DNA of 64,000 bases from Candidatus Marinacidobacterium sp. (GCA_965250045.1 OZ252286.1:2150269-2214268); one strand, 5' to 3'. Shown: positions 9,149 to 51,354, counted from the stretch's first letter. Numbers and translations: made by a program. The notes: generated by a model not told the origin, from the letters alone.

Positions 9149-10524
9149 GCGGGGCGGCGCGCGGACTCCCGGGCCGCTTTGCGGTACCCATTTTCGAAGG
9201 CGCTGACGCCTATCGGGCCGACCCGCGGCGGACCAGTCTCGAAGGAACCGGTTCCGGCCAGATTGTCCGGGAGCGAACCGCGGCCATCCTGGAGCGGGTG
9301 CGACGGGAGGGGGACGACGCTCTCGTCGAGTTGGCGCGCCGGTTCGATTCCGCCGACTTCGAATCGCCGCGCCTTCGGGTATCCCCGGAGGAACTCGCTC
9401 GCCTCGCCGCGGACGCCGGGCCGGAGGAGCGGGGGCTGCTCCGGCGGACCCGGGACCGCATCGCGGCCTACCACGAGCGCCAGCGCGAAGAGTCGTTCCG
9501 GATGGATCTCGGGGAGGGATCGCGCCTCGAATGGCGATCCGCTCCGATCGCGTCCGCGGGGGTGTATGTGCCCGGCGGAGCTGCGGTGTACCCGTCCACC
9601 GTACTGATGAACACGGTTCCGGCGACCGTGGCCGGAGTACCGCGGATCGCGCTCGCGACGCCTCCGGGCGCCCTCGAACGTAGTCCGGTGCTGGCGGCGG
9701 CGGTCCTCGCGGCCGGCGTCCACGAGGTCTACCGGATCGGCGGGGCCCAGGCCATCGCGGCCTTTGCGTACGGAACCGCGACCGTCCGGCCGGTGGACAA
9801 GGTGGTGGGACCGGGGAACGCCTACGTCGCCGAGGCAAAACGTCAGCTCGGCCACCGCATCGGGACCGATGCGTTCGCCGGACCCTCCGAAGTCGTGGTG
9901 TTGGCCGACGAGACGGCCCGGCCGGACTGGGTTGCCGCGGATCTCCTGGCCCAGGCCGAACACGGTTCCGGAGAGGAACGCGCCATCCTCATCACCACCT
10001 CGCGCGAGCTTGCGCAGGCGACGGTCGCCGAGCTCGGCCGCCAAGCCGAGGGCCAACCGAATGCCGAAACCATCGCCCGCGCCCTCGCGCGCCACGGAGC
10101 GGTGGTTCATGTCGAAGGATTGGACGAAGCAGTGCGGATCGCGGAGGAAATCGCGCCCGAACACCTTGAGGTCATGACTCGCGACCCCGAGACCCTTGCC
10201 GACCGGTTCCCGAGCGCGGGGGCGGTCCTGCTGGGTGAGCACTCGCCCGTGGCAATCGGCGACTACGGAGCGGGTCCGAATCACGTCCTGCCGACCGGCG
10301 GCACCGCCCGCTTCGCCTCGCCGCTCTCGGTCGGCGATTTCCTGAAACGGCAAAGCGTCCTCCGCTTCCGGAAAGCGACCCTGGAGTCGTTCCGGGAGGA
10401 CTTCGAGCGCTTTGCCCGCATCGAGGGATTCGAGGCGCACGCCCGCTCCGTTGCGATCCGCTTCGAGGATGATCACCCGCAGGGAACGCCGGCCACCGGT
10501 AGCCCGGCGGCGTTCCGGTCTTAA
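9145..10524 (+). CDS. hisD: Histidinol dehydrogenase
   Basis: GVYVPGG, VGPGNAYV, AGPSE, AQAEH, APEHLE, GPNHVLPT. Confidence 0.97.
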   Translation: MSGAARGLPGRFAVPIFEGADAYRADPRRTSLEGTGSGQIVRERTAAILERVRREGDDALVELARRFDSADFESPRLRVSPEELARLAADAGPEERGLLRRTRDRIAAYHERQREESFRMDLGEGSRLEWRSAPIASAGVYVPGGAAVYPSTVLMNTVPATVAGVPRIALATPPGALERSPVLAAAVLAAGVHEVYRIGGAQAIAAFAYGTATVRPVDKVVGPGNAYVAEAKRQLGHRIGTDAFAGPSEVVVLADETARPDWVAADLLAQAEHGSGEERAILITTSRELAQATVAELGRQAEGQPNAETIARALARHGAVVHVEGLDEAVRIAEEIAPEHLEVMTRDPETLADRFPSAGAVLLGEHSPVAIGDYGAGPNHVLPTGGTARFASPLSVGDFLKRQSVLRFRKATLESFREDFERFARIEGFEAHARSVAIRFEDDHPQGTPATGSPAAFRS

Positions 10525-10722
10525 CAGCCTGTGGCGAAACTCACGCGGCGTTCGAGCGGCGATACATCCCGGCTGAACCGCCCCCCCACCGGGAGAACTG
10601 GCGCTATGCGGCGCTCTGCGTTGCGTTTCGGTCGAAATACACTCGGTATTCCTCCCTCACGCGCCTTGTCAGCCGGGCGCCTCCCCGCTCTCGGCGCTCA
10701 CCCGAGTTCCACCACAGGCTGT
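10524..10722 (+). mobile_element. MITE copy (181 bp core + one module = 199 bp)
   Basis: TA|ACAGCCTGTGG...CCACAGGCTGT|TA; the left TA is part of the hisD stop. Confidence 0.85.
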
Positions 10723-10755
10723 TAGAACAGATCGCGGTTTCGCTACATTGCCGGT

Positions 10756-11883
10756 ATGAAATCCGTTCCGCTGGATGCGATCCGTTCCGAGGTTTTCGAA
10801 CTCGCCCCCGATGTGGGGTCCCGTCCGGATGTCCCCATCCACCTGGACTGGAACGAGAGCCGGTGGCCGCTTCCCGAAGGGGTCCTTGCGGCGATGGCGG
10901 AGGCGGTCGCCGGAACGGACGCCCGGCCGTATCCGGACCGGGGCTATCCGGAAGTCCGGGAGGCGATTGCCCGTCTCGCCGATTGGGAGCCCGAGGGGGT
11001 CGCGTTCGGAAACGGCGGGGACGACATGCTCGCGCTGATGGCGCTCGCCACGACCGGCGCCGGGCGTCGCGCCCTGTATCCGTCCCCGGGTTTTTCCATG
11101 TACCCCTGGGCGGTCCGGCTCGCCGGCGGGGAGCCCTCTCCGGTGGCCCTGCTCGACGACCTCTCCTACGACGTTCACGAGTTCCTCCGGCGAATCGAAT
11201 CCGAGCAGCCCTCTCTCGTCTTCGTTACGAATCCGCACAACCCGACGGGGCAACTGCTCCCCTTGGAGGCTCTCCGCGAACTGGCCTCGGTGGCGCCGGG
11301 CTTTTTGTTGGTGGACGAGGCGTATCACGAGTTCAGCGGACAGACGGCCCGGCCGCTGCTTGACGAATTCGGCAACGTCATCCTGCTGCGGACCTTCTCG
11401 AAGGCGATGGCGATGGCGGGAGCCCGTCTCGGCTATCTGCTCGGCGCTCCTGATGCGATCTTCAATATCCGTCGAGCCCAGCCCCCGTTCCCGGTCGGGG
11501 TCTACACGTGCCGGGCGGCGTCCGCCGTCATGAGGCAACGGGACGCCCTCCTCGAAATGACCGTCAAGATCACGGCGGAACGGGAGTCGTTGGCCGACCG
11601 GCTCGCCGTACTGCCCGGAGTCTCGGTCTGGCCATCGCACACGAACTTTGTGCTCTTCAAGACCCCGATGGAAAGCACCGTGCTGGCTCGCCGGATCCTC
11701 GATCGGGGGGTCGCGCTGCGCGACTTCTCGCGCCACCCACTGCTCCAGGGAACGCTCCGCGTCACCGTGGGGACCCCGGAAGAGAACGTGGTCTTCCTGG
11801 AGGCACTCGCCGACTCGCTGTCCCGGGCCGTTCTTGACTCGGAAGTTCAGGTGGCCGGGGTGGCGGAGTCCCCGGTCGCGTGA
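10756..11883 (+). CDS. hisC: Histidinol-phosphate aminotransferase
   Basis: NPHNPTG, VDEAY, RTFSKAMAMAGARLGY. Confidence 0.95.
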   Translation: MKSVPLDAIRSEVFELAPDVGSRPDVPIHLDWNESRWPLPEGVLAAMAEAVAGTDARPYPDRGYPEVREAIARLADWEPEGVAFGNGGDDMLALMALATTGAGRRALYPSPGFSMYPWAVRLAGGEPSPVALLDDLSYDVHEFLRRIESEQPSLVFVTNPHNPTGQLLPLEALRELASVAPGFLLVDEAYHEFSGQTARPLLDEFGNVILLRTFSKAMAMAGARLGYLLGAPDAIFNIRRAQPPFPVGVYTCRAASAVMRQRDALLEMTVKITAERESLADRLAVLPGVSVWPSHTNFVLFKTPMESTVLARRILDRGVALRDFSRHPLLQGTLRVTVGTPEENVVFLEALADSLSRAVLDSEVQVAGVAESPVA

Positions 11884-12503: not shown

Positions 12504-12509
12504 CCGCCC

Positions 12510-13966: not shown

Positions 13967-13979
13967 GGGCCGCTCTTGG

Positions 13980-16564: not shown

Positions 16565-16977
16565 CCGCGGCGGCGGCAGAACCCCGGACCCGCGATCGCG
16601 TTCCGCTCGTCATCTACGACGGCGGCTGAGGCTTTTGCACGCGCGCCGCGGTCGCGGCGGCCCGATTCGCGGGCGACCGGCCGATTCGCTTTGCTGCCTC
16701 TCAGGAACTGACCGACGACCAATTGGCCCGGCTCGGCATCTCGCGAACCGCGTGTGAAGAGCGCGTCCGCTTCAGGGATCTGAAGGGCCGGTTCCACGGC
16801 GGGGCCTTCGCGGTGAACCGGTTCCTCCTCTATGCCGCACCCCCGGGCCTGAGGGGACTTCCCGCGCGTGTCCTGGCGGTGCTCGCCTACGCGTTTCCGC
16901 CACTTCTGCTCGCCGAACTGGCCGCCTACGAAATCGTTGCCCGGAACCGCGGCTGTCGCCTGCTCAATCCGTCCTAG
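16561..16977 (+). CDS. DCC/DUF393 thiol-disulfide oxidoreductase with in-frame TGA (candidate selenocysteine, UxxC)
   Basis: TTG 16561 overlaps the upstream TGA; LVIYDGG-[TGA 16627-16629]-GFC; the frame continues to ..YEIVARNRG.. and TAG 16977. Confidence 0.82.
16644..16659 (+). promoter_or_regulatory. Putative bacterial SECIS hairpin
   Basis: CGCCGC-GGTC-GCGGCG; 20 nt separate the TGA from the G-led apical loop. Confidence 0.65.
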
Positions 16978-17395
16978 CAGCCCGTGGACAAAGTGAACCG
17001 GCATTCGAGCGGCGATGCATCCCCGCCAAACAACCGGTGATGAAACCCACGCGGCCCAGTTCTCCCGGTGGGGGCTCGGCCGGCGATCCATCCCGGCTGA
17101 ACTGCGTCGCTTCGCGCCGCTCGTCGTTGCGTTTCGGTCGGAATACACCCGGGCCAGTTCTCCCGGTGGGGGCTCCTCCCTCACGCGCCTTGTCAGCCAG
17201 GCGCCTCGCCCCCACCGGGAGGACTGGCCGGCCTCGGCGCTCACGTGGGTTCCACCACCGGCTGTTCACCGCTCTGCTTCGCGTCGCTCATCGTTGCGCT
17301 TCGGTCGAAATACGCTAGGTATTTCTCCCTCGCGCGCCTTGTCAGCCGGGCGCCTCCCCGCTCTCGGTGCTCGCCCCACTTTGCCCAAGGGCTGC
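16977..17395 (+). mobile_element. Nested MITE (element within element, 3 modules)
   Basis: 419 bp = 2x181 + 18 + 18 + 19 + 2; outer and inner termini are both visible. Confidence 0.85.
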
Positions 17396-17438
17396 TCGAC
17401 GCTATCCTGCGCTACCGGCCCGTCCGAGGAGGTCTCTC

Positions 17439-18678: not shown

Positions 18679-18693
18679 GGCAGCCAAGCGTCA

Positions 18694-18911
18694 GCAGCCG
18701 GTAGACAAAGTCACGCGGCGTTCAACCGGCGATGCATCCCGGCTGAACCACTCCGCTTCGCGTCGCTCATCGTTGCGCTTCGGTCGAAATACACCAGGGC
18801 CAGTTCTCCCGGTGGGGACTCCTCCCTCGCGCGCCTTGTCAGCCGGGCGCCTCACCGGCCAGTTCTCCCGGTGGGGGCCTCGGCGCTCGCGTCACTTTAT
18901 CCACAGGCTGC
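18694..18911 (+). mobile_element. MITE copy (218 bp, two modules)
   Basis: GCAGCCGGTAGACAAAG...CTTTATCCACAGGCTGC|TA; overlaps the M20 gene stop. Confidence 0.85.
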
Positions 18912-20221
18912 TAGTTGGCGGCTTCGAGGCCGGCCTCGGCCAGCACGAGCAGCAGCGCCTTCTGGATGCCCAAATGGCCGTCACGGTTGGCCCACCACTC
19001 GTGGAGGGAGTGAGCGCCGAAGCCCTCTCCACCGCTGCCGATCGTGGTGGCCGGGATTCCGCGGGCGATGGGGACGTTCGAGTCCGTGGAGCCCATGCTG
19101 AGTTCCGGCTCCGCCCCAACGGCCCGGGTTGCGGCGAGAGCCCGCTGAATGAGCGGGGTGTCGATCGCAACCATCCCGGACGGGCGATCTCCAATCAACT
19201 CGATGTCCACCGTCAGCTCCTCGCCGTCCCGCCGCATTTCGTTCTGCTCAGCGAGCGCCTCGGTCATCGCCGCGTGGAAGATGGCGTCGATCTCCTCGAG
19301 CCGTCCGGGTTCCATGGACCGCATGTCCACTTCCATCCAATTCTCGAACGGGATCGAATTGATGGAGGTGCCGCCTCCGATGCGTCCGATGTTGTAGGTG
19401 GTCTTGGCTCCCGCCATGACGTATTCGCCCGCGCGATCGTCGAACAGTTTGATGGCCCGCGCCATGGCGTGAGCCGGGTTCCCGAGGCCAAAGGCCCCCC
19501 ACGAATGTCCGCCGGGCCCGAGGAAACGCACCCGAAAGCGATGGGAGCCGATCGCGTGATTCAGCACCCGGGTGTTGCTCGTGCCGTCAATGGCGATGAA
19601 CGCGTCGATCTCCGGTCCCCCGTCGCGGAAGAGGTGCTTGACTCCCCGCAGATCTCCGATTCCCTCTTCCCCGACCGAGCCGACGAACAACACGTCGTCT
19701 CGCGTGTCGAGCCCGTGGCGAGCCATGAGTTTGACGATGGCCAGCATGGTCACCAGGCCGCGGGTGTCGTCGGCGATCCCGGGGGCCATCAGCTTGTCGC
19801 CGGCTCTCCGGACGGTGACATCGGTTCCTTCGGGAAACACGGTGTCGAGGTGAGCTACCACCGCGATCGTCCGGCCTCCGGTTCGGCCGCTCCGACGGGC
19901 GACGACGTTCCCGATCTCATCGATTCCCGCCTCGAGCCCCGCTTCGCGCACGAGTCCCTGGTAGTGGGCAGCTCGCACTTCCTCGATGAAAGGGGGCGCC
20001 GGGATCTCGGTCAACTCGATCAGCAGGCGCTCGTTCTCCTCATCCATCGCGAGGACCTCCTCGAGCGCCGCCGAAACCCGGGGGTCGGCCGTGATTTCCG
20101 CCAGCTCGGCCTGGTACTCGGGAAGCACCTCGAGTTCCTGAGCCTGAACGCCGAGCGCGGGAAAAAGCAGGCCCACGGTCAGGGCAGCGAGCAGTTGCGG
20201 TCTGGAATGCGATAACGGCAT
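18911..20221 (-). CDS. M20/M25/M40 family metallohydrolase, exported
   Basis: AHLDTVFP, PGIADD, VGEEG, GGHSW, STDSN, AHSLHEW. Confidence 0.92.
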   Translation of the reverse strand: MPLSHSRPQLLAALTVGLLFPALGVQAQELEVLPEYQAELAEITADPRVSAALEEVLAMDEENERLLIELTEIPAPPFIEEVRAAHYQGLVREAGLEAGIDEIGNVVARRSGRTGGRTIAVVAHLDTVFPEGTDVTVRRAGDKLMAPGIADDTRGLVTMLAIVKLMARHGLDTRDDVLFVGSVGEEGIGDLRGVKHLFRDGGPEIDAFIAIDGTSNTRVLNHAIGSHRFRVRFLGPGGHSWGAFGLGNPAHAMARAIKLFDDRAGEYVMAGAKTTYNIGRIGGGTSINSIPFENWMEVDMRSMEPGRLEEIDAIFHAAMTEALAEQNEMRRDGEELTVDIELIGDRPSGMVAIDTPLIQRALAATRAVGAEPELSMGSTDSNVPIARGIPATTIGSGGEGFGAHSLHEWWANRDGHLGIQKALLLVLAEAGLEAAN

Positions 20222-22516: not shown

Positions 22517-22548
22517 GCCCGACGCCGGAGCTGGGTCCCGGAGGTTTA

Positions 22549-22765
22549 ACAGCCTGTAGCAAAACCCACGCGGCCCAGTTCTCCCGGTGGGGGCTCGGCC
22601 GGCGATCCATCCCGGCTGAACCGCGTCGCTTCGCGCCGCTCATCGTTGCGTGTCGGTCGGAATACACCCGGGCCAGTTCTCCCGGTGGGGGCTCCTCCCT
22701 CACGCGCCTTGTCAGCCGGGCGCCTCGCCGGTCTCGGCGCTCACGCGGGTTTCACCACAGGCTGT
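22549..22765 (+). mobile_element. MITE copy (217 bp, two modules)
   Basis: TA|ACAGCCTGTAG...CCACAGGCTGT|TA; overlaps the lctP stop. Confidence 0.85.
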
Positions 22766-24534
22766 TAGTTGGTGCGGTTGCGGAAGATCCACACCGCGGC
22801 CCCGATCGCGATGCCGGCCACGACCAGGGAACCGGCATTTACCGGTCCCAGCGTGCCGGACCACAGGATCGCATAACCGAGGGCTCCCGGGAGCAGGGCG
22901 TAGTAGACGAACGGAACCAGCGTGCGCCGGATCACCGCGCCTTCCCGGCCGACCAGCCCGACGACCGCCGAGGCGGCCACCACGTTGTGGACACAGATCA
23001 TGTTCCCTGCCGCTCCCCCGACCGCCTGGAGCGCGACCACCCAGCCGGGATCCACCGAGAGACGCTCGCCGACACCGAACTGGAACAAGGAGAACATCAT
23101 GTTGCTCACCGTGTTGCTCCCGGCGACGAAGGCCCCGAGACCGCCGATGAAGGGTGCGAAGAACGGCCACGCCGACCCCGCGATCTGTGCGGCGCCCTCA
23201 GCGAGGGCGATGGGCATCGAGGCGAGCCCTGCCGCACCGCCGCCGGTGTTCAGGAACACCTGCACCATGGGCACGGTGAACACGAGCGCCACCGAAGCGA
23301 GGGCGGTACTCCGGAATGAGGCGGAGACGGCGCGCCCGACCTGCCCTCGGTCCATCCGGTGGATCAGGACCGCAAACAGCGAGGCGGCGATGAAGACGGC
23401 GCCCGGAAGGAAGAGCGGCGCGGCGCTCGCGCTGATGTCGCTGCCGAAGATGTCCGACCAGCGAATCACCACTCCCGAAAGGAATTCCTTGAAGGGCAGC
23501 GACGGCAGGCGGGTAAGCACCAGGAGACCGCCGACTACCGCATAGGGAGCCCATGCGGATACGGCTCCGATCTTGCGGCCCTCCGCCGGCTGGGTGTCCG
23601 AGATCAGCTTTCCTCCGACCCAGTCCGCGTCCCAGGCGGAGCGCGGCGGGAACTCGAAATGTTGGCTGGCAGGGGGCATGAAGAGGCCCCGCCGCGCGGC
23701 CGTAACTACGATCCCGAGCCCGATCAGGCCGCCGAGGAGCGCCGGGAATTCGGGACCGAGCAGCCAGGCGGTGAGCAGGTAGGGAGCCGTCATCGACACC
23801 GCGGCGAAAAGGGCGAACTTCCAGACCGCGAGGCCCTCCCGGAAGCTCCGGCGCTCCCCGAAGAACCTGGTCATGGTGGCGACCACGATCAGCGGGACCA
23901 GGGTGCCGGCGACGGCATGCAGGATCGCGACCCGAAGTCCGATGAAGGCCAGGAACTCCGTCCATTCCGGGAATCCGAGCCCGGCGGCGTAGGCGGCGAC
24001 CGCTTCCGATCCCGAGAGACCGGTGGAGACCCCGACCAGGATCGGGGTTCCCGCGGCGCCAAAGGAGACCGGGGTGCTCTGGATGATCATTCCCGCCACC
24101 ACGGCGGCGAGCGGCGGGAACCCGAGGCCCACCATCAACGGCACGGCAACGGCGGCCGGCGTCCCAAACCCGGCCGACCCCTCGATGAATGATCCGAACA
24201 GCCAGGCGATCAGGAGGACCTGGATGCGACGGTCGGGAGTGATGCCGACAAACCCGCGTCGGATCACGGAGAGGGCTCCGCTCTCCTGCATGGTGTGCAG
24301 CAGGAGAAGCGCGCCGAAGATGATGTAGAGCAGCGTCCCCGCGACCACCAGGCCGTTGACCGACGCGGCCGCGATCCGGACGCCGGAAATGCCCCAGATA
24401 CCCCAGGCGAGTCCAGCCGCCGCGAGCCAGCTAAGCGGCATGGCGCGCGACGCCGGCCAGCGCAATCCGACCAGAAAGAGTGCGACCACCCCGATCGGGA
24501 CGAGCGCGATCGCGGCAAGACCAAGAGTTCCCAT
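22765..24534 (-). CDS. lctP: L-lactate permease
   Basis: Polytopic membrane protein; [39 protein letters not shown]. Confidence 0.93.
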
Positions 24535-26137: not shown

Positions 26138-26246
26138 CGCGGGAGAGATCCAGGCGCGCGGTCAGCGCGGCCGAATCCTTCGGCGGAGATGCTCTGAGCT
26201 GAACCGCCTCAGGCGGAGACCCGGGCGGGACTCCAGCGTATCTCTA

Positions 26247-26672
26247 GCAGCCTGTGGACAAAGTCACGCGGCCCAGTTCTCCCGGTGGGGGCTCGGCTGC
26301 CGATGCATCCCGGCCAAACAACCGGTGATGAAACCCACGCGGCCCAGTTCTCCCGGTGGGGGCTCGGCCGGCGATCCATCCCGGCTGAACCGCGCCGCTC
26401 ATCGTTGCGTTTCGGTCGAAATACACCAGGTATTCCTCCCTCACGCGCCTTGTCAGCCGGGCGCCTCGCCGGCCTCGGCGCTCACGTGGGTTCCACCACC
26501 GGCTGTTCACCGCGCCTCTGCGAGGCGCTCATCGTTGCGCTTCGGTCGAAATACGCTCGGGCCAGTTCTCCCGGTGGGGGCTCCTCCCTTGCGCGCCTTG
26601 TCAGCCGAACCCCCACCGGGAGAACTGGGCCTCGCCAGCCTCGGCGCTCACGCCACTTTGTCCACCGGCTAC
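26247..26672 (+). mobile_element. Nested MITE (4 modules, 10-nt internal deletion)
   Basis: Outer GCAGCCTGTGGACAAAG..CTTTGTCCACCGGCTAC|TA; overlaps the nrdJ stop. Confidence 0.85.
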
Positions 26673-29431
26673 TAGGAGCAGCCCGAGGTGGCGCCGCAGT
26701 TCAGGCACTTGAAACAGGTGCCGCTCCTCACCATCAGGGCTCCGCAGGTGGAACAGGGCGGGGCATCGGCGAAGACGGCCGCCGGTTCCAGCACCGTGCT
26801 ACGACGCGGGTGAGGACGGGCTTTCGCACGGCGCGCGGTGGGCCGGCGTGGCTCACTGTCTTCGGCGCCCATTTCGTCGGGAACCGTCAGAAAACGGTGT
26901 CCCAGCCAGCGGAAGATGTAGTCGGTGATCGAGTCGGCGTGCGGGATGTCCGGATTGCCGGTGTATCCCGATGGTTCGAAGCGAGTGTGGGAGAACTTGT
27001 CGACCAAAACCTTGAGCGGAACCCGGTACTGGAGGTTGTAGGAGACCGCCCGCGCGAAGGCGTCCATCAGTCCGGAGACGAAGGAGCCTTCCTTGGCCAT
27101 CCGCAGGAAGATCTCGCACGGAGAGCCATCCTCACGGAGTCCGACCGTGAGGTATCCCTTGTGTCCCCCGATATCGAACTTGTGGATGATGGCGTCGCGC
27201 TCCGGCGGCAGGTGTTCCTTCTCGGCCGTGTCGGAGATGGTCGGCGCCTCCGGCGTGGATTCGCCACGATTCAGAGGCTGAGATTTCTTGCTGCCGTCCC
27301 GATAGATGGCAACCGCCTTCAAGCCGAGCTTCCAGGAGGCCAGATATGTGTCCTCGACGTCCTCGACGGTGCTTTCCTCGGGCATGTTGACCGTCTTGGA
27401 AATGGCGCCCGAGAGGAAGGGTTGGACCGCATGCATCATCTTGACGTGGCCCATGTGGTGGATGGAACGCTTGCCGCCGAACGGCTCGAGGGCGCAATCG
27501 AACACCGGGAGATGTTCCTCATTCAGGTCGGGGGCCCCCTCGACATGGCCGTGCTCATCCACGTAGTCCCAGATCCGCCGAATGGCTGCGTCGTCGTAGC
27601 CCAGGCGCCCAAGCGCCGAGCGCACGGTCTGATTGACGATGCGGATGATGCCGCCGCCGCTGAGCTTCTTGTGCTTGATCAAAGAGAGATCAGGCTCCAC
27701 ACCGGTCGTGTCGCAATCCATCATGAGTCCGATGGTGCCGGTGGGAGCGAGCACCGAAGCCTGGCCGTTCCGGTAGCCGTATTCCTCTCCGAGCGCGATG
27801 GCCTCATCCCAGACCTGCTGCGCCCGGGGAAGGATTTCCGTCGGGACTCCCGCCGCATCGATGTCCAGCGCTGCATCCTGATGCATGCGCATCACCTCGA
27901 GGAAGGGCGCTTCGTTCTCCGGATAGCCCTGGAACGGTCCCGTGATGTCGGCGATGCGAGCCGACTGGCGGTAGGCGCGTCCGGTCATCAGTGACGTCAG
28001 CGAAGCGGCGATCGATCGACCGAGATCGCTGTCGTACGGAACACCCCGGTGCATCAGGAGTGCCCCGAGGTTCGCGTAGCCGAGCCCGAGGGGCCGGAAC
28101 TCGTGCGAGTTCTTCTCGATCCGCGCCGTTGGATAGCTCGCATTCCCGACGATGATTTCCATGCCGGTCAGGACCACGTCCACCGCGTGTTCAAAGCCCT
28201 CGGTGTCGAAGTCGCGTTCCTCACTGACGAACTTCATGAGGTTCAGGGATGCGAGATTGCAGGCGCTGTCGTCGAGGTACATGTACTCGGAACACGGGTT
28301 CGAGGCGTTGATCCGCGCGGTGTTCTTCGAGGTGTGCCAGCGGTTGACGGTGTCGTCGAACTGCATGCCCGGATCGCCGCACCGGTGTGCCGATTCCGCG
28401 ATCTGCCGGAACAGTTCCCGGGCTCGCATGGTGTCCATCGGCTCACCCGTGGTAATCGCGCGGGTGGACCAGTCTTCGTCGTTTTCGACGGCGCGCATGA
28501 ACGCATCACTCACTCGCACGCTGTGGTTGGCGTTTTGATACTGGATGGACGCGTAGGCCTCGCCGTTCAGGGAGCCGTCATAGCCCGCGTCAATGAGTGC
28601 GTGGGCCTTTTGTTCCTCGCGGGACTTGCAGTCAATGAAATCGAGGATGTCCGGGTGATCCACGTTGAGAATCACCATCTTCGCGGCTCGGCGAGTCTTG
28701 CCGCCGCTTCGGATGACGCCGGCGAAAGAGTCGTACCCCTTCATGAAGGAAACCGGCCCGGAGGCTGTCCCGCCGCTGGACAACTGTTCGCGTGAACTGC
28801 GGATTGTGGAAAGGTTGGTCCCGGTGCCGGACCCCCACTTGAAGAGCATCCCTTCGGTCTTGGCGAGGGTCAGGATGGAATCCATGGTGTCCTCGACCGA
28901 GTTGATGAAACAGGCCGAGCACTGAGGATGCTTCTCGACACCGCAGTTGAACCAGACCGGCGAGTTGAAGGCCGCGTACTGGTTGAGCAGCAGGAAGGTG
29001 AGTTCCTCGCGGAACGTATCCGCGGCCTCCTGGTCGGCGAAGTACCCATCCTTCACACCCCAGGCGGCGATCTGGTCGGCGACCCGTCCGACGAGTTGCC
29101 GGACGCTCGATTCGCGTTCTCCCTTCTCAAGCGATCCGTGGAAGTACTTCGACGCCACGATGGTGGTCGCCATCATGGACCATGACTTCGGGAACTCCAC
29201 GCCGTGCTGGGCGAAGATCGTTTCGCCGTACTCGTCAGTGATGATGGCGTCGCGCTTTTCCCACTCCACCTGGTCATAGGGTGAGACGCCACGTTCCGTA
29301 AAGCGGCGCCGGAATTCGAGTCCGCCGGCGCGACCGTTCTTTAGTTCCTTCCGGGTCTCTTGTTCCTTCCGGGTCTCTTGTTCCTTCCTGGAGCGGGGCT
29401 CCACGGTGGTGGGTTCTACGGCTACGTGCAT
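26672..29431 (-). CDS. nrdJ: Adenosylcobalamin-dependent (class II) ribonucleotide reductase
   Basis: FNSPVWFN, QCSACFI, SNPCSEY, SACNLASLN, APTGTI, C-terminal Zn-ribbon ending TSGCS; ATG 29431; short KEQETR tandem repeat near the N-terminus. Confidence 0.95.
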   Translation of the reverse strand: MHVAVEPTTVEPRSRKEQETRKEQETRKELKNGRAGGLEFRRRFTERGVSPYDQVEWEKRDAIITDEYGETIFAQHGVEFPKSWSMMATTIVASKYFHGSLEKGERESSVRQLVGRVADQIAAWGVKDGYFADQEAADTFREELTFLLLNQYAAFNSPVWFNCGVEKHPQCSACFINSVEDTMDSILTLAKTEGMLFKWGSGTGTNLSTIRSSREQLSSGGTASGPVSFMKGYDSFAGVIRSGGKTRRAAKMVILNVDHPDILDFIDCKSREEQKAHALIDAGYDGSLNGEAYASIQYQNANHSVRVSDAFMRAVENDEDWSTRAITTGEPMDTMRARELFRQIAESAHRCGDPGMQFDDTVNRWHTSKNTARINASNPCSEYMYLDDSACNLASLNLMKFVSEERDFDTEGFEHAVDVVLTGMEIIVGNASYPTARIEKNSHEFRPLGLGYANLGALLMHRGVPYDSDLGRSIAASLTSLMTGRAYRQSARIADITGPFQGYPENEAPFLEVMRMHQDAALDIDAAGVPTEILPRAQQVWDEAIALGEEYGYRNGQASVLAPTGTIGLMMDCDTTGVEPDLSLIKHKKLSGGGIIRIVNQTVRSALGRLGYDDAAIRRIWDYVDEHGHVEGAPDLNEEHLPVFDCALEPFGGKRSIHHMGHVKMMHAVQPFLSGAISKTVNMPEESTVEDVEDTYLASWKLGLKAVAIYRDGSKKSQPLNRGESTPEAPTISDTAEKEHLPPERDAIIHKFDIGGHKGYLTVGLREDGSPCEIFLRMAKEGSFVSGLMDAFARAVSYNLQYRVPLKVLVDKFSHTRFEPSGYTGNPDIPHADSITDYIFRWLGHRFLTVPDEMGAEDSEPRRPTARRAKARPHPRRSTVLEPAAVFADAPPCSTCGALMVRSGTCFKCLNCGATSGCS

Positions 29432-32787: not shown

Positions 32788-32908
32788 GGACTCGCAACCG
32801 TTGTAATCGGGAACTAGGGGAGGCGGGAAGCCCCCACGAGAGAGACTAGTCGAGAGACCCCGGTCACGCCAATTGCTTGTTCGCGGTAGCGCGACGGCCG
32901 CATCGTCA

Positions 32909-33089
32909 ACAGCCTGTGGTGGAACCCGGGTGAGCGCCGCGAGCGGGGAGGCGCCCGGCTGACAAGGCGCGTGAGGGAGGAATACCAGGTGTATCGCAAC
33001 CGAAACGCAACGCAGAACGGAGCGAAGCGGAGTGGTTCAGCCGGGATGCATCGCCGCTCGAACGCCGCCTGGGTTTCACCACGGGCTGT
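32909..33089 (-). mobile_element. MITE copy, bare 181-bp core, reverse orientation
   Basis: ACAGCCTGTGGTGGAACCC...GGGTTTCACCACGGGCTGT|TA; no module. Confidence 0.85.
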
Positions 33090-33093
33090 TAAC

Positions 33094-34077: not shown

Positions 34078-35288
34078 CGCTCGTTGGGTGCCGGGAGGGT
34101 GACCCGGGTGGGGCGATCCCGCCGGTATCCCAGCGCGTAGTCGGCCTGCATCAGGGTGTGGATTTCCCGGGTTCCCTCGTAGATGACGGCACCCTTGGAA
34201 TTCCGCCAGAAGCGCCCCACGGGATACTCGTCCGAGTAGCCGTAGGAACCGTGGATCTGAATTGCGTCCGATGCTGCCCTTTCGGAGGCGACCGTGGAGA
34301 CCCACTTGGCAAGTGAGGTCTCGCGGGTGTTTCGGCGTGCCCGGTTCTTCAGCTCTCCAGCGCGAAGCCACAGTAGCCGGCTGACCTCGTAGTCGCGTTC
34401 CATGTTGGCGATCATCTGCTTGACGAGCTGATATCGGCCGATCTCCTGACCGAAGGTTGTGCGGGCGCGAGCCCACCGAACGCTCTCATCCCTGCAGGCC
34501 CGGATGAGTCCCGTCGCGCCGGCCGCCACGGTATAGCGACCCTGATCCAGCGCGAACATGGCGATCTTGAAGCCCTCGCCCTCTTCGCCGAGCCGGTTCG
34601 CCGCCGGCACCCGGACATCGTGCATGCGGAACCAGCCCGTGTTTCCTGCCCGAATCCCCCACTTGTGCTTCATGTTGCCGGACTCGAATCCGGGGAAGGA
34701 GCGTTCCACGATAAAAGCCGACAGGCCCGAGTGATCCCGCCGGGCCCGTTTGTCGGGATCCGTCCAGGCGATCACGAGGAAGTTGTCGGCGATCTCGGCC
34801 AGGGAGATCCAGTGCTTTTCGCCCGACAGCACGTAGTCCGACCCGTCGCGTCGGGCCATCGCCCGGATGCCCACCGCGTCGCTCCCCGCGTCGGGTTCGG
34901 TGAGTCCGTAGGTTGCGATCTCGGCCCCTTCGGCTTGTGGCCGCAGATAGCGCTCCTTTTGTGCTTCGCTGCCCCAGGCCAACAGCGACAGGGAGTTCAG
35001 CCCGACGTGCACCGACATGATGACGCGCAGCGAGGTATCCACGTATTCGAGTTCTTCGCAGGCAAGCCCAAGCGAGATGTAGTCCAGCCCCGCTCCCCCG
35101 TAGCGCTCGGGAACGGAGATTCCCAGGATGCCGAGCTCTCCCAGTCCCTTGAGGATGCTGCGATCAAAGACCTTTGCGGCATCGTTTTGGCGGATGTGCG
35201 GCGCCACCTCGCGCGCCGCGAACTCGCGAACCAGCGACTCCGTTGCGCGATGTTCTTCACTCAGATCGAAGTTCAGACGCTCAGCCAA
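34074..35288 (-). CDS. Acyl-CoA dehydrogenase family protein
   Basis: [32 protein letters not shown]. Confidence 0.93.
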
Positions 35289-35386
35289 AGTTCATCTCGC
35301 CTTTCCCGGTTCCTTCCATCCCGCCCGCATCCCGCCGGTGGCGCGGAGCGCGGAGTATATGGCGATGCTCCGGGCCCCTCGTGCTA

Positions 35387-36526
35387 GTGTGGTGTCCCGC
35401 AAATGGCGATGATAATATGGGGTCCTCCCAGGAGGTCCCCATGCCGAAAGGACGCCCCCTGTCGCCACTCGTCCTCGATGAGGAACAGCGAGGCCAACTG
35501 ATGGCCCTGTCCCGATCCACCTCCATGCCCCACGGACTGGTGCAGCGGGCGCGGCTGATTCTGGCGAGCGCCGAAGGCCTCTCCAACCAGGCGGTGGCGG
35601 AACGCGTCGGCCTCACGCCCAACGTCGTGGGGAAGTGGCGACGCCGCTTCCGGGAGGCAGGGGTCACCGGCCTCCACGACGAACTCCGCCCGGGACGGCC
35701 GCGCACCTACAGCGACGAGAAAGTGGCGACGCTCATCAACCATGCCCTCCAGGAAGAGCCCGACAATGCCACCCATTGGAGCGTGCGCTCCATGGCGGAC
35801 GCGCAGGGAGTCTCCAAGAGCACGGTGCAGCGCTGGTTCGCCCTGTTCGGCGTCAAGCCGCACCTGACCCGGACCTTCAAGCTCTCTACCGACCCCTTCT
35901 TCATCGAGAAAGTCCGGGACATCGTGGGGCTCTACCTCCATCCACCGGACAACGCCATGGTCCTCTGCGTGGACGAAAAGTCCCAGATCCAGGCCTTGAA
36001 CCGCACCCAGCGAGCCTTGCCCCTGGGCCTGGGCTATGTCGAGGGCTACACCCACGACTACCTCCGCCACGGCACCACCACCCTCTTCGCCGCCCTGGAT
36101 GCCGCCACCGGAAAGGTCATCGCTCGCTGCCGCCAGCGGCACCGCCATCAGGAGTTCCTCGACTTCCTGCGTCTCATTGACCGCGAAACTCCGGGAGATC
36201 TTGACCTCCACCTGGTGGTCGACAACTACGCCACCCACAAACACCCCAAGGTCCGCGCCTGGCTGGCCCGCCGACCTCGTTTCCACCTCCACTTCACCCC
36301 GACCTATGCCTCCTGGCTCAACCAGGTGGAGCGCTGGTTCGGACTCATCAGCCAGCAGGCCATCAAGCGCGGCAGTTTCCAAAGCGTCACCCAGTTGAAG
36401 CAGACGATCATGGCGTTCACCGACCAATACAACCACAACTCCACCCCCTTCGTCTGGGTCGCCACCGCACAATCCATCCTGGAGAAGCTGGAACGACTAG
36501 CAACTCGTATTTCCGGGACAGCACAC
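35387..36526 (+). mobile_element. IS630 family insertion sequence
   Basis: Terminal IRs GTGTGGTGTCCCGCAAAT / GTGTGCTGTCCCGGAAAT (16/18 match), flanked by TA on both sides. Confidence 0.93.
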
Positions 36527-36529
36527 TAG
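35441..36529 (+). CDS. IS630 family transposase
   Basis: RBS AGGAGG; [39 protein letters not shown]. Confidence 0.95.
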
Positions 36530-36746
36530 CAGCCTGTGGTGGAACCCGGGTGAGCGCCGAGAGCGGCCAGTTCTCCCGGTGGGGGCGAGGCGCCCGGCTG
36601 ACAAGGCGCGTGAGGGAGGAATACCGGGTGTATTTCGACCGAAACGCAACGCAGAACGGAGCGAAGCGGAGTGGTTCAGCCGGGATGGATCGCCGCTCGA
36701 GCCCCCACCGGGAGAACTGGGCCGCCTGGGTTTCACCACCGGCTGC
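36529..36746 (-). mobile_element. MITE copy (218 bp, two modules), reverse orientation
   Basis: TA|GCAGCCTGTGG...CCACCGGCTGC|TA; shares its TA with the IS630. Confidence 0.85.
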
Positions 36747-36773
36747 TAGAGCCGCGCCGGAGGTGATGGGCGA

Positions 36774-38396: not shown

Positions 38397-38397
38397 T

Positions 38398-40416: not shown

Positions 40417-40833
40417 CGCCGGAGGCGGAACTGAGGGGGAGGCCGGGCCGGCCGGTCGCCCCGCGGGCTGCGGTGGGTCTTGGGTGGGGATGTCTTGGCG
40501 GGCGGGTGTTGGAGTGACGGCAGTTGGCCGGATTGTTGGATCCGGGGCGTTCCCGATGAGGTCCGGTTCGACACCTCTAGGGTACGCGCGCTCACACTCG
40601 AAACCCGAAGGCTCGGCGCCGCCCGCGGAGTGGACAATCCGTCAGAGCGCGGTGCGGCGCCGAGACACCGGGTCCGGCGGCGGTTTCGAAACAGAGCGTG
40701 CGGTAGGCCGGCCAGTTCCGCCAGGCAAGGCCCCGCTTGGAATGGTCCGGTTACCGCTACCCGGGTCGGAAGCGCCGGCGAGCACCGGTCCGAAGAGCAC
40801 GGGCCGGCGCCCCGAGTGCTCAATTGAAGCATA

Positions 40834-41251
40834 GCAGCCTGTGAACGAAGCCACGCGGCCCAGTTCTCCCGGTGGGGGCTCGGTCGGCGATGCATCCCGG
40901 CCAAACAACCGGTGGTGAAACCCACGCGGCGTTCGACCGGCGATGCATCCCGGCTGAACCGCGCCGCTTCGCGTCGCTCATCGTTGCGCTTCGGTCGGAA
41001 TACACCCGGGCCAGTTCTCCCGGTGGGGGCTCCTCCCTCACGCGCCTTGTTAGCCGGGCGCCTCTCCGGCCTCGGCGCTCACGTGGGTTCCACCACCGGC
41101 TGTTCACCGCGCCGCTTCGCGTCGCTCATCGTTGCGCTTCGGTCGAAATACACCAGGGCCAGTTCTCCCGGTGGGGGCTCCTCCCTTGCGCGCCTTGTCA
41201 GCCGGGCGCCTCGCCGACCTCGGCGCTCACGTCACTTCGCCCACAGGCTGC
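40834..41251 (+). mobile_element. Nested MITE (3 modules)
   Basis: 418 bp = 2x181 + 3x18 + 2. Confidence 0.85.
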
Positions 41252-41395
41252 TCGCAGCCCCGCCCCTCCGCTTCGCCCCTTGACGCCGCCGGTCGGTGGG
41301 ATCCTCTCCTCGCCGGGATGGCGTTCCCGGGGGCAGTCCGGCGTGTACCGCGCGCTTCCGCTTGCGGCACCGTACACTCCCGAAAGTCCCTGTCC

Positions 41396-42645: not shown

Positions 42646-42739
42646 GGTTCCGACGGGGACTCTCCCGGGAATGGGGTCTCCGTTCCCATTCTATTCGGAA
42701 GGGGGGCAGGGCCGGCCGAGAGCCGGTTCCAGCCGCCTG

Positions 42740-43061
42740 ACAGCCTGTGGTGAAACCCACGCGGCCCAGTTCTCCCGGTGGGGGCTCGGCCGGCGATGCA
42801 TCCCGGCCAAACAGCCTGTAGTGAAACCCGCGCGGCCCAGTTCTCCCGGTGGGGGCTCGTCCGGCGATGCATCCCGGCCAAACAACCGGTGGTGAAACCC
42901 ACGCGGCGTTCGACCGGCGATGCATCCCGGCTGAACCGCGCCGCTTCGCGTCGCTCATCGTTGCGCTTCGGTCGAAATACACCAGGTATTCCTCCCTCGC
43001 GCGCCTTGTCAGCCGGGCGCCTCCCCGGCCTCGGCGCTCACGCGGGTTCCACCACCGGCTG

Positions 43062-43062
<1 letters not shown>
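42740..43062 (+). mobile_element. Compound MITE: three tandem left ends and one right end
   Basis: Left-end sequence repeats at about 42740, 42811 and 42882; overlaps the valS stop. Confidence 0.82.
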
Positions 43063-45968
<2,906 letters not shown>

Positions 45969-45970
45969 TG

Positions 45971-46133
45971 GCAGCCTGTGGATGAAGTGGCGTGAGCGCC
46001 GAGAGCGCCGAGAGCGGTGAGGCCCAGTTCCCCGGTGGGGCCAGTTCTCCCGGTGGGGGCCCGGCTGACGAGGCGCGCGAGGGAGGAGCCCCCACCGGGA
46101 GAACTGGGCCGCGTCATTTCGTTCACAGGCTGC
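45971..46133 (-). mobile_element. Internally deleted MITE with three module copies (two in tandem)
   Basis: Both termini are present; the segment between two module slots is missing; ends 2 nt before the valS ATG. Confidence 0.8.
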
Positions 46134-46136
46134 TAT

Positions 46137-48602: not shown

Positions 48603-48606
48603 CCTA

Positions 48607-48805
48607 GCAGCCTGTGGTGAAACTCACGCGGCGTTCGAGCGGCGATGCATCCCGGCTGAACCGCCCCCCCACCGGGAGAACTGGCGCTTTGCGGCGCTCT
48701 GCGTTGCGCTTCGGTCGAAATACACTGGGTATTCCTCCCTCGCGCGCCTTGTCACCCGGGCGCCTCCCCGCTCTCGGCGCTCACGCGAGTTTCACCACAG
48801 GCTGT
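48607..48805 (+). mobile_element. MITE copy (199 bp, one module)
   Basis: TA|GCAGCCTGTGG...CCACAGGCTGT|TA; overlaps the lptFG stop. Confidence 0.85.
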
Positions 48806-51075
48806 TAGCGCCGCTGCAGCAACAAAAAGACCGAGGCAAGGCTGAAGAACAGGTTCGGAGACCAGGCTGCGAGCACTGGATCGAGTAGCTCCGCGTCCCC
48901 GATAGAACGGAAGAACTGGGTGGCTACCAGGTAAACGATCGCGATGGCGAACGCGATGCCGGCGCTGGCCCACGCGCTCTGATTCGTCCTCCGGAATGCG
49001 AACGGCAGGCCGATGAGCACCGTCACCAGCGATGCGAAGGGCAGGGAGGTCTTGGTCTCGAGGGCCACATGGAGCGAAGGATCGTGATGGCCTGCCGCCT
49101 CGATCGTTTCGATGCGGCGCTGCAGGTCGCCGTAGGGGAGGTGGTCCGTGGCCAGATTCTGCTCGAGGAGGGCCTCGGGTACCGAGACCTCCGGAATCTC
49201 GCGGATAGCGAAGGGTTCGGCCGCGCGACCCCGCTGGAGGTCGCGCTCCCAGCCTCCGATACCCGTCCAGGTCCGCTCTGCCTCGGACCAATGGGCGGAA
49301 GCGGCATAGCTGCGGGCGGTAAGCGATGCGCCGTCCGGGCTCAGTCGGAAGATGGACAATCCGCTCAAGACCGCGTTGTCCGCGTCGAAATCGTCGTAGT
49401 GGTAGATCTGTCCCTCGGGGCCCATGCCCCAGTGGCGCTCCAGCGGATTTACGGTGCGCCGCGCCTCGCCCCGGATGCGCCCGCCAGTCTCTTCGGTCTC
49501 GGGCGCCGTCAGGGGAATCAGCCGTTCCTGAAGTCCAAAGCCCGCGCCACTCGCGAGGATTCCCACGGCAAGCGCCGGGACGACGAGGCGCGTGCGGCTG
49601 ATTCCCCCGCCAAGAAACGCCGTCACCTCGTTGTGACGGCTCAGAAGCCCGAAGGTCACGAGCGTCGCCGTGAGGGTCGCCAGCGGCAACATCTGCGCCG
49701 TGAAGGCGGGGATCGAGAGGCCCAGGTAGCGAAGTACGGTGAAGGCCGGGATGTCCCGCTCGAAGGCGTCACGGATCACCCCGTTCAGCAGGCCGATCAG
49801 TTCCCATGAGAGGAGCGCGGCAAGTGAGATGGCGAGAAAAATGCCAAATTGGGTGATGACGTACCGATCGAGGATGGTGGGCAGCCCGGGCGGACGCCAG
49901 CGACGTACGGGTGGGCGGCGGCGGGGCACCAGCAGCCACAACCGACGGAGAAAGCGGAGCGTCGCCGCGAGCGGATCGAGTTCCCGCGAGGCCAGCGCCA
50001 GGAGAGCAATCCCGGCGGCGACCGTGAGGATGTTGGCGCCCCACATGGCGAGCCATGGCGACAGCTCCCCGGCGGCGGCGAGCTGTTCGCCGAACATGAT
50101 CGGGACATACCACGCGAGGACCACGAGGATTGCTATGGCGAATGCTCCGGCGCGCGCCGGTCTCGGGGATGGTCGGATCCCGAGTCCCAGGCCGAGCAAC
50201 CCGAAGGCGAAGCAAGCGAAGGGAAAGGCGAACTTCTTGTGGATCTCGACCAGATAGATGGGGTGGTCCGTGCCTTCATAGGCGGTCACCAGCTCCGGGA
50301 GAAGCATGGCCCGGGCGCTGTGGCTGGGGCTCAGGGTCTCCGGTCCGAACACTTCCTCGGCGTCGAGCGGCATGCGAATCTCTTCGGCGCGTTGAATGCG
50401 GTACTGCCCCGGATCGTCAAGGCCCGCGTTGTGGACCTCCACGCCGCTGAGTTCGAGGAATGCAAGGCGCTCTTTGGGGAGCGTTACCAGCCGTCCGCGG
50501 TCCGCGACAAAGATCGTCGGCTCGTCGATACGCGCGGTGTCCGCGAGGAAGACACGCCTCCAGCCTTCCTCACCCGGTGGCGCCTCCCCCACCAGCAGGA
50601 CCCGACCATCGAGGAGTTCGTCATAGAAGATGCGGGGCTCGATTTCGGTGCGCAGCCGGGAGCTCAGGAGTTCGTCCCTCAGTTCCACGAACCGCTGGTT
50701 CGACGGCGGGACGATTTCCAGCATCAACAGCAGACACAAGCCGAATGCGGCCCCTGCCGCGGTGGCGATCGGCAGGAGGAGACGCCAGGGAGAGATTCCG
50801 CCGGCCCGCATCGCGATCAGTTCGTGGCCGCTCGAGAGCCGGTTGAGTGCCAGCAGAATGCCGAGCAGAAGCGCGCTTGGGACCGCGACTGCCAAGAGCG
50901 CGGGGATCAGTTGGGCGAAGGCCAGGCCCACCGTGGCCGGGTTCGCTCCCTGGGTGACGATTAGCTGGATGTTGACGATGAGCTCGTTCAACAGCAGCGC
51001 GAACAGGAAGACCCCGGTCCCGAGGAATACGCCGGGGGCGATGAGCCGGAGGATGTAGCGATTGAGAAGACCCAC
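48805..51075 (-). CDS. Fused LptF/LptG LPS export permease
   Basis: Two permease halves (LLNRYIL..ELIAMRAGGIS; ILDRYVI..NEVTAFLGGGIS..AAWSPN); GTG 51075. Confidence 0.88.
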   Translation of the reverse strand: MGLLNRYILRLIAPGVFLGTGVFLFALLLNELIVNIQLIVTQGANPATVGLAFAQLIPALLAVAVPSALLLGILLALNRLSSGHELIAMRAGGISPWRLLLPIATAAGAAFGLCLLLMLEIVPPSNQRFVELRDELLSSRLRTEIEPRIFYDELLDGRVLLVGEAPPGEEGWRRVFLADTARIDEPTIFVADRGRLVTLPKERLAFLELSGVEVHNAGLDDPGQYRIQRAEEIRMPLDAEEVFGPETLSPSHSARAMLLPELVTAYEGTDHPIYLVEIHKKFAFPFACFAFGLLGLGLGIRPSPRPARAGAFAIAILVVLAWYVPIMFGEQLAAAGELSPWLAMWGANILTVAAGIALLALASRELDPLAATLRFLRRLWLLVPRRRPPVRRWRPPGLPTILDRYVITQFGIFLAISLAALLSWELIGLLNGVIRDAFERDIPAFTVLRYLGLSIPAFTAQMLPLATLTATLVTFGLLSRHNEVTAFLGGGISRTRLVVPALAVGILASGAGFGLQERLIPLTAPETEETGGRIRGEARRTVNPLERHWGMGPEGQIYHYDDFDADNAVLSGLSIFRLSPDGASLTARSYAASAHWSEAERTWTGIGGWERDLQRGRAAEPFAIREIPEVSVPEALLEQNLATDHLPYGDLQRRIETIEAAGHHDPSLHVALETKTSLPFASLVTVLIGLPFAFRRTNQSAWASAGIAFAIAIVYLVATQFFRSIGDAELLDPVLAAWSPNLFFSLASVFLLLQRR

Positions 51076-51095
51076 GGCGGAGTTCCCGGATTCTA

Positions 51096-51354
51096 GGAGG
51101 CTGTGAACAAAGTCATGCGGCGTTCGAGCGGCGATGCATCCCGGCCAAACAACCGGTAATGAAACCCACGCGGCGTTCGGCCGGCGATCCATCCCGGCTG
51201 AACCGCGTCGCTTCGCGCCGCTCATCGTTGCGCTTCGGTCGGAATACACCCGGGCCAGTTCTCCCGGTGGGGGCTCCTCCCTCACGCGCCTTGTCAGCCG
51301 GGCGCCTCGCCCCCACCGGGAGGACTGGGCCGCATGAGCTTCTCTACGGGTTCC
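51096..51354 (+). mobile_element. Rearranged nested MITE ending in an inverted left end
   Basis: After the last module the sequence reads as the reverse complement of a left end (..CTCATGCGGCCCAGT). Confidence 0.7.

Follow-up and report, generated by a model that had tools for sequence, protein, structure and literature searches.

Repetitive extragenic palindromes (REP) and the neisserial dRS3 repeats are known landing pads of IS110-type elements, and a partner enzyme (RAYT and Ssn, respectively) is thought to explain or to accompany each repeat. REP measure about 35 nt and form imperfect palindromes, and RAYT is credited with their spread; DNA uptake sequences (DUS) and uptake signal sequences (USS) are family-wide words present on both strands, often as inverted pairs and also within genes, and template switching at quasipalindromes normally copies the neighbouring arm, in tracts of variable length. 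IS110-family elements are described as RNA-guided recombinases that often target REP (among others, PMC12288879 and 10.64898/2026.08.31.748434). According to PMC11893778, the dRS3/NTS repeat of Neisseria is a word of ~20 nt with hundreds of copies, whose number differs strongly from one related species to another; a specific phage recombinase targets this word, which lies in mosaic intergenic arrays and forms a palindromic hairpin that is bound and cut by Ssn, a small GIY-YIG nuclease encoded beside it. Here, a stretch of 64,000 nt from Candidatus Marinacidobacterium sp. (GCA_965250045.1, OZ252286.1:2150269-2214268; hereafter the window) was analyzed, in which a module of about 20 nt recurs inside copies of a miniature inverted-repeat transposable element (MITE). 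The best overall explanation, favored at slightly less than even confidence, is that the module is a discrete unit repeatedly inserted whole by templated joining, multiplied by hitch-hiking with its host repeats, and used as an attachment site by IS110-family elements.

Like the REP and bacterial interspersed mosaic elements (BIMEs) targeted by IS621, ISPpu9 and ISPpu10, the module is a short, high-copy, mostly intergenic word that is entered at a fixed position and in a fixed orientation, and it shares with them a mosaic arrangement with other short motifs. In contrast to REP, it is 19-22 nt long, forms no hairpin alone and inserts inside other repeats and genes, and no Y1/RAYT was found in the source genome. 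The dRS3/NTS word and the module have in common the ~20-nt size, the hundreds of copies, the variation between species, the targeting by a recombinase and the mosaic surroundings; however, the module is not palindromic, the sole GIY-YIG match of the source genome (PF01541) lies inside a 622-aa frame, and no nuclease recurs near 30 modules of module-poor genomes. Quasipalindrome or template-switch mutagenesis shares with the module the hairpin-loop sites, the microhomology joins and the mirror-image slots on both foldback arms, whereas here the same ~20 nt appear at unrelated loci. The host belongs to the ordinary foldback MITEs that duplicate TA, and is comparable to the Correia and RUP elements; unlike these, the module, about a tenth the size of known MITEs, has no terminal inverted repeat (TIR) and no clear target duplication, and it replaces 1-3 nt. 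As with DUS and USS, the module is family-wide, on both strands, in inverted pairs and within genes; uptake words are shorter, the known ones being about half its length, and arise by point mutation. The module fits the short interspersed words that serve as recombinase targets, lacking the palindrome, the RAYT or the Ssn-type nuclease. No description of it, nor any paper on Marinacidobacterium, was found in the library searched, beyond which papers may exist.

A search with the 22-mer module at up to two mismatches gave 24 matches in the window (none in 100 dinucleotide-preserving shuffles), and the 18-mer with up to one mismatch matched the same 24 places; a tolerance of one indel added a degenerate tandem partner at 46024-46040, bringing the total to the approximately 25 copies reported in the initial annotation. 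All 25 fall within copies of a single MITE family and, classified by their flanks, are distributed over six slots, forward or reverse with respect to the MITE (S_B, 8; S_A, 7; an S_B-left/S_A-right recombinant, 1; S_C-type, 3; S_D, 3 with the tandem at 46024-46060 included; S_E, 2; S_F, 1), in agreement with the at least five positions, both orientations and single tandem noticed there. The source genome (G000; three contigs, 3.76 Mb, 67% G+C) contained 631 exact copies of the 18-mer and 776 with up to one mismatch, about equally distributed between the strands. From these 776, 630 were within 120 nt of a match to the core MITE and 146 were not, so that the proposal that every copy sits in this MITE is true for the window and false for the genome. 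The 855 chromosomal matches to the 17-mer core were distributed among the MITE (n = 648), a second, REP-like hairpin repeat family that also hosts modules (family 2; n = 155), other places (n = 49) and junctions with F3 or ISc (n = 3), two IS110-type elements described below; the second family, the 49 copies elsewhere and the copies within genes set aside a confinement to MITEs.

The module core was CAGTTCTCCCGGTGGGG, within a conserved span that usually reads G[G/C]C-CAGTTCTCCCGGTGGGG-GC (19-22 nt); in a position matrix of 861 copies, conservation was 87-100% from -3 to +18, with variable sequence outside. Aligned one by one with the module-free core, 330 genome copies revealed additions of 18 nt at ~30, 66, 109 and 143-145, of 19 nt at 150 and 153, and of 36 nt for the tandems, matching the net gain of 18 or 19 nt per copy previously noted, and the TIR-to-TIR lengths of the MITEs fit the expected classes of 181+18, 181+36 and 181+18+19. 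Two states were found per slot, as in S_A, with NNGGTATT (8 nt) when empty and NNGGGCCAGTTCTCCCGGTGGGGGCT (26 nt) when filled; the corresponding lengths were 8 and 26 nt for S_B, 21 and 39 for S_E, 14 and 33 for S_C, 6 and 25 for F2a, and 7 and 26 for F2b, giving a net change of +18 at S_A, S_B and S_E, and of +19 at S_C, F2a and F2b. The replaced 1-3 nt follow a G, and the ~20 nt that take their place (CCAGTTCTCCCGGTGGGGGC, give or take a left base) may lie in either orientation. Perfect stems are complete in the empty states (GAATAC/GTATTC, GCCGACC/GGTCGGC and GCCGGT/ACCGGC), indicating that these states are ancestral and that the event is an insertion, and ruling out an excision footprint, in which the filled state would be ancestral and the empty one derived. 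The capture of restriction fragments (GG^CC) was also discarded, since the main target sites have no GGCC.

The core MITE forms a single long hairpin (-54.9 kcal/mol, z = -6.1; none of 200 shuffles was as good), on which S_B lies opposite S_C and S_F at one internal loop, S_H lies opposite S_D at the next one, and S_A is on the 3' shoulder of an apical loop; S_C and S_F are one place, filled in opposite orientations. The family 2 slots adjoin the hairpin loop, and in a further repeat the module is at the apex of a GC hairpin. The module itself has no TIR and no internal inverted repeat beyond CCC/GGG, hairpins being formed only by two inverted modules, and most slots show the replacement of 1-3 nt, not duplication. 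The module lands whole at or next to unpaired spots of hairpin DNA (internal loops, loop shoulders, the REP-like stem-loop and the GC-hairpin apex) and, rarely, in variable linkers of genes. In the explanation favored here, the insertion step would be the templated copying of a short single-stranded form of the module into hairpin DNA exposed as single strands, with microhomology at the joins; one possible route would be a template switch onto the looped-out module of a folded donor repeat; taken alone, this step is proposed only tentatively. The replacement of a few bases with G/C microhomology and no clear duplication would fit a templated copy better than conservative recombination or staggered-cut transposition.

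The initial annotation had proposed that the module was acquired independently several times, a view supported by at least eight slots in the MITE, at least four in family 2, the GC-hairpin apex and two genes filled in different lineages. An Lhr-type helicase gene (G000 C1:3226849) carries an in-frame copy just before the WH4 domain, with a net gain of 18 nt; this module is present in G000, G001 and G007, and missing from G013, G008 and G009, the empty site being CTGGCGGC|G|CCCGCTG and the filled one CTGGCGGC|CAGTTCTCCCGGTGGGGGC|CCCGCTG. In a Flavoprotein-domain gene (locus L193 of G009, around position 1500) the module was detected only in G009 among six genomes compared, also in frame and with a net gain of 18 nt; read by eye, it has no stop codon in any of the six frames. 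Two more G000 sites are filled in some relatives, in variable sequence and less cleanly. Orthologous MITEs also differ in module state, as observed at 36.5 kb of the window for an S_C-type slot (G000 versus G001) and at 51.2 kb for S_A (G000 versus G007), and the module-poor genomes, with 10-17 copies, carry it mostly in differing contexts. Judged from the listings, and not counted, the insertions that took place separately within the family would number some 25-30. At one module site, a tandem array of ~14-nt units (..attcagcgggccca..) is expanded beside the module in G013 and G001 (L243/L240), and not in G000 (C1:3082200).

The way in which the module multiplies was addressed with 170 full-length single-unit MITEs, of which 98 were empty and the others displayed 17 further combinations of slot states (18 in all). 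On a tree of the MITEs built without the slot columns, module state required about as many parsimony changes as labels shuffled at random (38 against 42.1 for slot A, 7 against 7.0 for B, 8 against 7.9 for C, 18 against 17.5 for D and 13 against 16.5 for E), and all 14 single-nucleotide polymorphism (SNP) controls needed far fewer changes than any shuffle, even with nine columns removed on each side. Linkage between SNPs faded within ~10 nt among the 170 copies (mean r2 falling from 0.36 to 0.14, 0.08 and 0.04), which makes the family a mosaic and implies either exchange of very short tracts or recurrent compensatory change among MITE copies. Direct module pairs went together with internal MITE deletions that join S_B-left to S_A-right contexts (22+5 copies; 45970-46135 is the example in the window), and an S_D-left/S_E-right recombinant context was found in four copies. 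There were 107 inverted pairs, 48-55 nt apart, which form new 20-bp stems, and 45 tandem pairs, all of them head-to-tail at exactly 18 nt and mostly at S_D, with no inverted adjacent pair. Inside a repeat family, the module multiplies by hitch-hiking and by exchange among copies, and its presence therefore assorts freely with the rest of the element. Since exchange and amplification suffice, most of the ~800 copies would derive from these processes and not from hundreds of insertions; on the MITE tree, where the initial annotation had suggested mapping slot gains, the states assort freely. Independent acquisition is supported many times over by the variety of slots and hosts, and hundreds of such events are not needed.

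The same data bear on the alternative that the module has no mobility of its own and stems from a few old illegitimate events followed by repeat amplification and ectopic gene conversion or recombination, in a mosaic like the BIMEs or the neisserial intergenic mosaic elements (NIMEs). Exchange among copies is pervasive, as the loss of linkage and the recombinant contexts indicate, 76% of the copies reside in one MITE family, each slot has one invariant junction, and the orthologues at 36.5 kb of the window that differ in the module also differ at adjacent SNPs. Nevertheless, at least 12 slots in two families, the GC-hairpin apex and two single-copy genes share ~20 nt with the same limits, whereas illegitimate events predict variable limits or partial modules, and nearly all of 730 exact right halves adjoin either a left half or the end of an IS110 element; the mostly different contexts of the genomes with 10-17 copies also go against it. 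This alternative is considered unlikely.

Several observations weigh against the repeated insertion of a whole module by templated joining. Given the fast decay of linkage, the lack of association between module state and host sequence is by itself no proof of recurrent insertion, and a single insertion per slot followed by exchange among copies fits as well; the tandems, being mostly at one slot, may come from a single slippage event. The G/C microhomology leaves the junctions ambiguous by 1-3 nt, and a minority empty variant of F2a (TCCGGC, 18 copies) permits a clean 19-nt insertion flanked by GGC, a parse that looks more like conservative recombination or target duplication. The restriction of insertions to loops could reflect the survival of those tolerated, rather than targeting. 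Regarding replication, a strand bias of the modules was not found in the two main host families; the 49 copies located elsewhere showed a weak excess (top strand 34 lagging vs 15 leading, p = 0.009, uncorrected and with an origin inferred from a shallow skew) that serves as a lead only. Finally, we infer the templated single-strand step from the junction anatomy, the inserting molecule and its enzyme not having been found.

The suggestion that the module might be a recombination site gained support from IS110-family elements that enter it at a fixed position. F3 is a non-autonomous element of ~200 nt, with ends GCTGTGAAAATGCAG... and ...CCGATCATGGGCGT and no terminal inverted repeats, which sits between CCAGTT and TTCTCCCGG of a module regardless of the slot that the module occupies. 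It was found at G000 C1:282743-282946 and at ~30 other loci, all of them outside the window and always within a module, with 28 left junctions (CCAGTT|GCTGTG..) and 36 right junctions (..CATGNNNGT|TTCTCCCGG); 13 of 31 left ends had a right end less than 500 nt away. Among the 730 right halves (TCTCCCGGTGGGG), nearly all of which follow a left half, 33 had no CCAGT-like left neighbor: 23 came after an F3 right end, nine were one-base deletion variants and one was of another kind, and the opposite F3 end never preceded an interrupted right half. F3 includes a family-2a hairpin unit, its ends are ISc-like and of IS110 type, and its origin as an RNA-only IS110 derivative is probable; a 14-nt stretch complementary to the module at 11 of 14 positions across the TT was noticed by eye, and is a lead rather than a result.

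ISc, an autonomous relative of F3, has a 432-aa open reading frame (ORF) with matches to PF01548 (DEDD_Tnp_IS110, 2.2e-24) and PF02371 (Transposase_20, 3.3e-18), and interrupts a module in G000, its orthologous counterpart in G001, and S_A modules in G007. A second IS110 type, ISb, split the module at GGTGG|GGGCC in all three copies. A third type, ISa (5-6 copies of 2.13 kb with a 437-aa ORF, for example G000 C1:85370-87491), inserts at one position of the family-2a hairpin, GGGAACGCCG|ACCTCCGG; it was ruled out as the autonomous parent of F3, since it targets that hairpin and not the module. The entry point of IS110-type insertions is CCAG-TT-CTCCC in a single orientation, with a TT readable at both junctions, although this parse is not unique. 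Rfam gave no matches at E <= 0.1 for four IS110 loci. Because these elements insert in the module at a fixed position and orientation, the module is, judging by the junction sequences, a landing pad, or attachment site, of the IS110 family; the targeting of this word by IS110 elements is new here. The RNA-only ssr9 modules of ISPpu9, as portrayed in PMC12288879, ride the same recombinase as their parent, as F3 would here.

In the explanation favored here, insertion of the module itself would not be conventional transposition, and no dedicated enzyme appeared in profile searches of G000. Neither reverse transcriptases (PF00078, RVT_1; no matches and no first-look candidates), nor Y1/RAYT (PF01797; no matches, with the control positive in 6 of 14 genomes), nor TnpB zinc ribbons were detected, and the only GIY-YIG match was the one mentioned above; among these profiles, the original remark that no responsible enzyme is visible was upheld for the whole genome, no small GIY-YIG protein being present. 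A k-mer spacing scan of G000 found no CRISPR-like array containing the module, and the neighbors of 30 modules in four module-poor genomes (92 ORFs) included no recurrent recombinase or nuclease. In that sample mutL appeared twice, adjoining the module in G011 (L191) and G015 (L202), probably by coincidence or because the intergenic site is orthologous.

Known insertion sequences (IS) were also rejected as mobilizers. ISc was present in only six of 28 genomes of the family and missing from G013, the richest in modules (1566); PF01548 was present in 11 of the 28, with no match in the closed genome G019 (70 modules) and one in G013. This patchiness argues against IS110-type elements as mobilizers of the module. 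The ends of the IS4/5-like (24 loci), IS256 (23 loci), IS4 and IS630 elements were unlike the module.

These distributions also count against the possibility that the module is a minimal non-autonomous IS110-type element, consisting of short ends plus core, which would be cut out as a minute circle of single-stranded DNA and inserted in trans, in part at half-matching off-targets. G000 has 11 PF01548 and 10 PF02371 matches, three IS110 types are tied to the module or its host hairpins, and F3 illustrates that non-autonomous derivatives arise here. Circles made only of ssr9 are a parallel described for ISPpu9 (PMC12288879), and single-stranded circles and half-match recombination are described for IS621 in a 2026 preprint (10.64898/2026.08.31.748434). 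Some junctions can be read as x-GC-[module]-GC-y, with single-GC empty variants for F2a (the TCCGGC already mentioned) and F2b (GGCCTTC, five copies). However, most slots lose 1-3 target nt (TAT, GT, CG or T), which is not expected of conservative site-specific recombination, and the module is unlike the ends of every IS110 type examined; together with the patchy occurrence of ISc and PF01548, this makes such an origin rather improbable.

The module was present in all 15 genomes of the genus, from ~8 to 1566 copies, and in four further genera of the family, with the 18-mer exactly conserved across at least five genera; it was negative in the 16 genomes from two sister families, for a total of 21 positives among 41 related genomes, and the reversed-word control gave zero matches in all genomes except one. 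A scan of species-representative genomes detected it in Vicinamibacteria, Candidatus Marinacidobacterium, Acidobacteria metagenome-assembled genomes and three outliers; two of these, actinobacterial, had no usual flanks and look like chance matches, and the third, a contig labelled 'Gammaproteobacteria', carries the family 2 context. This conservation, the equal frequency on both strands, the 107 inverted pairs and the tolerance in frame within genes are what would be seen if the module were a selected or driven signal, such as a site bound by an abundant protein of the host or a word resembling an uptake signal, with the favored alleles spreading by recombination. Yet neither selection nor drive can generate an identical 20-nt sequence from scratch at loci unrelated to one another; some process of insertion would still be needed, and this alternative is very unlikely. 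An assembly artefact, or adapter or primer contamination, can be dismissed, given that the module is found in those 21 independently assembled genomes, at orthologous positions in three species with diverged flanks and embedded in reading frames, and that the MITE-bearing bins reach a high summed depth in the contigs of four public runs.

The host element was classified as a TA-duplicating foldback MITE by its TIRs, TA target duplication, absence of coding capacity, many copies (462 merged loci in the genome, 186 near full-length) and empty orthologous sites; at 10.5 kb of the window, G000 reads TTA[MITE]TAG and its closest relative, G001, a plain ..TTAG.., and at the intergenic positions orthologous to 10.5, 17, 46 and 48.6 kb, relatives lack the MITE. 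As a separate observation, the orientation of the MITE relative to the inferred direction of replication was uneven (178 vs 125, p = 0.003). The reference for the core is a module-free long foldback at 63602-63786 (+), and another module-free copy lies in reverse orientation at 32907-33091 (-). Rfam gave no matches on the window at the gathering threshold.

From left to right, the MITE at 10522-10724 (+, flanking TA included; orthologous site empty in G001, G008 and G009) carries a module at 10582-10603 (-) in S_E. The composite, dimer-like MITE at 16975-17402 (+; site empty in G001, G007, G008 and G009) has three, at 17054-17075 (+, S_B), 17152-17173 (+, S_A) and 17208-17229 (-, S_C), the last one being a CCAGTCC variant. 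In the MITE at 18692-18913 (+), modules occupy S_A (18798-18819, +) and S_F, the S_C place in the opposite orientation (18857-18878, +), and in that at 22547-22767 (+), S_B (22573-22594, +) and S_A (22671-22692, +). The composite MITE at 26245-26675 (+) contains four modules: 26271-26292 (+), in S_B of an outer partial unit; 26342-26363 (+), in S_B; 26560-26581 (+), in S_A; and 26609-26630 (-), in S_D, the inverted partner of the preceding one. The reverse-oriented MITE at 36527-36748 (-), with an orthologous copy in G001, has a module in an S_C-type slot (36565-36586, +) that is empty in the G001 orthologue, and another in S_B (36701-36722, -).

Further to the right, the composite MITE at 40832-41253 (+) carries modules in S_B (40858-40879, +), in S_A (41009-41030, +) and in S_A of its second unit (41157-41178, +). 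A composite of 71-nt repeated left-end units at 42670-43064 (+; left limit approximate) has two in S_B, at 42764-42785 (+), within such a unit, and 42835-42856 (+). The short deletion derivative at 45970-46135 (-; site empty in G001, G007 and G008) contains the head-to-tail tandem, formed by the degenerate first unit (46024-46040, +), one base short, and the second unit (46039-46060, +) in S_D, as well as a module at 46088-46109 (-) with an S_B left and an S_A right context, as left by a deletion between two direct modules. The MITE at 48605-48807 (+) has a module in S_E (48665-48686, -). The old MITE at 51094-51356 (+), whose left end is common to G001, G007 and G008, carries a module in S_A (51253-51274, +), empty in the orthologous old MITE of G007, and a CCAGTCC variant (51309-51330, -) in which the S_C right context is fused to a TIR-proximal context.

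Part of the stretch was present in public runs labelled as sponge metagenome, and MITEs interrupted the contigs of four runs; a contig of run X2 joins 51097 straight to 51359, which points to a related population without the MITE at 51098-51358. The window also encodes an IS630-type transposase (DDE_3 and HTH domains) in an element at 35174-36526 (+), whose own terminal repeats begin with TAGTGTG and whose insertion site is the TA bordering the MITE at 36527. Two tandem arrays, one with a 30-nt period and ~34 overlapping registers (62306-63475) inside a long ORF (60944-63787) and the other with a 51-nt period (29930-30470), probably encode repeat proteins.

It is possible, at a tentative level, that the module is the smallest self-propagating unit of bacterial DNA seen, a word of ~19 nt copied via a single-stranded intermediate into exposed hairpin DNA, without a dedicated transposase of a known family; with comparable reserve, it is proposed that DNA spreads here in a new way, either independent of enzymes or relying on an unknown one. 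Mobility in trans would make the module the MITE idea in extreme miniature. A landing pad exists here that is no hairpin and for which no RAYT or Ssn partner was found. The empty and filled states available at a dozen slots, in two genes and in orthologues of sister species make the spread of such words directly testable, and the three IS110 types with differing cut positions, along with their RNA-only derivatives, constitute a natural set useful for the study of target choice by bridge recombinases. In these genomes, the module accounts for the length classes, the internal deletions and the new hairpins of the dominant MITE family and, if it does propagate itself in this way, the hundreds of identical pads that it seeds would influence the places open to RNA-guided IS110 recombinases.

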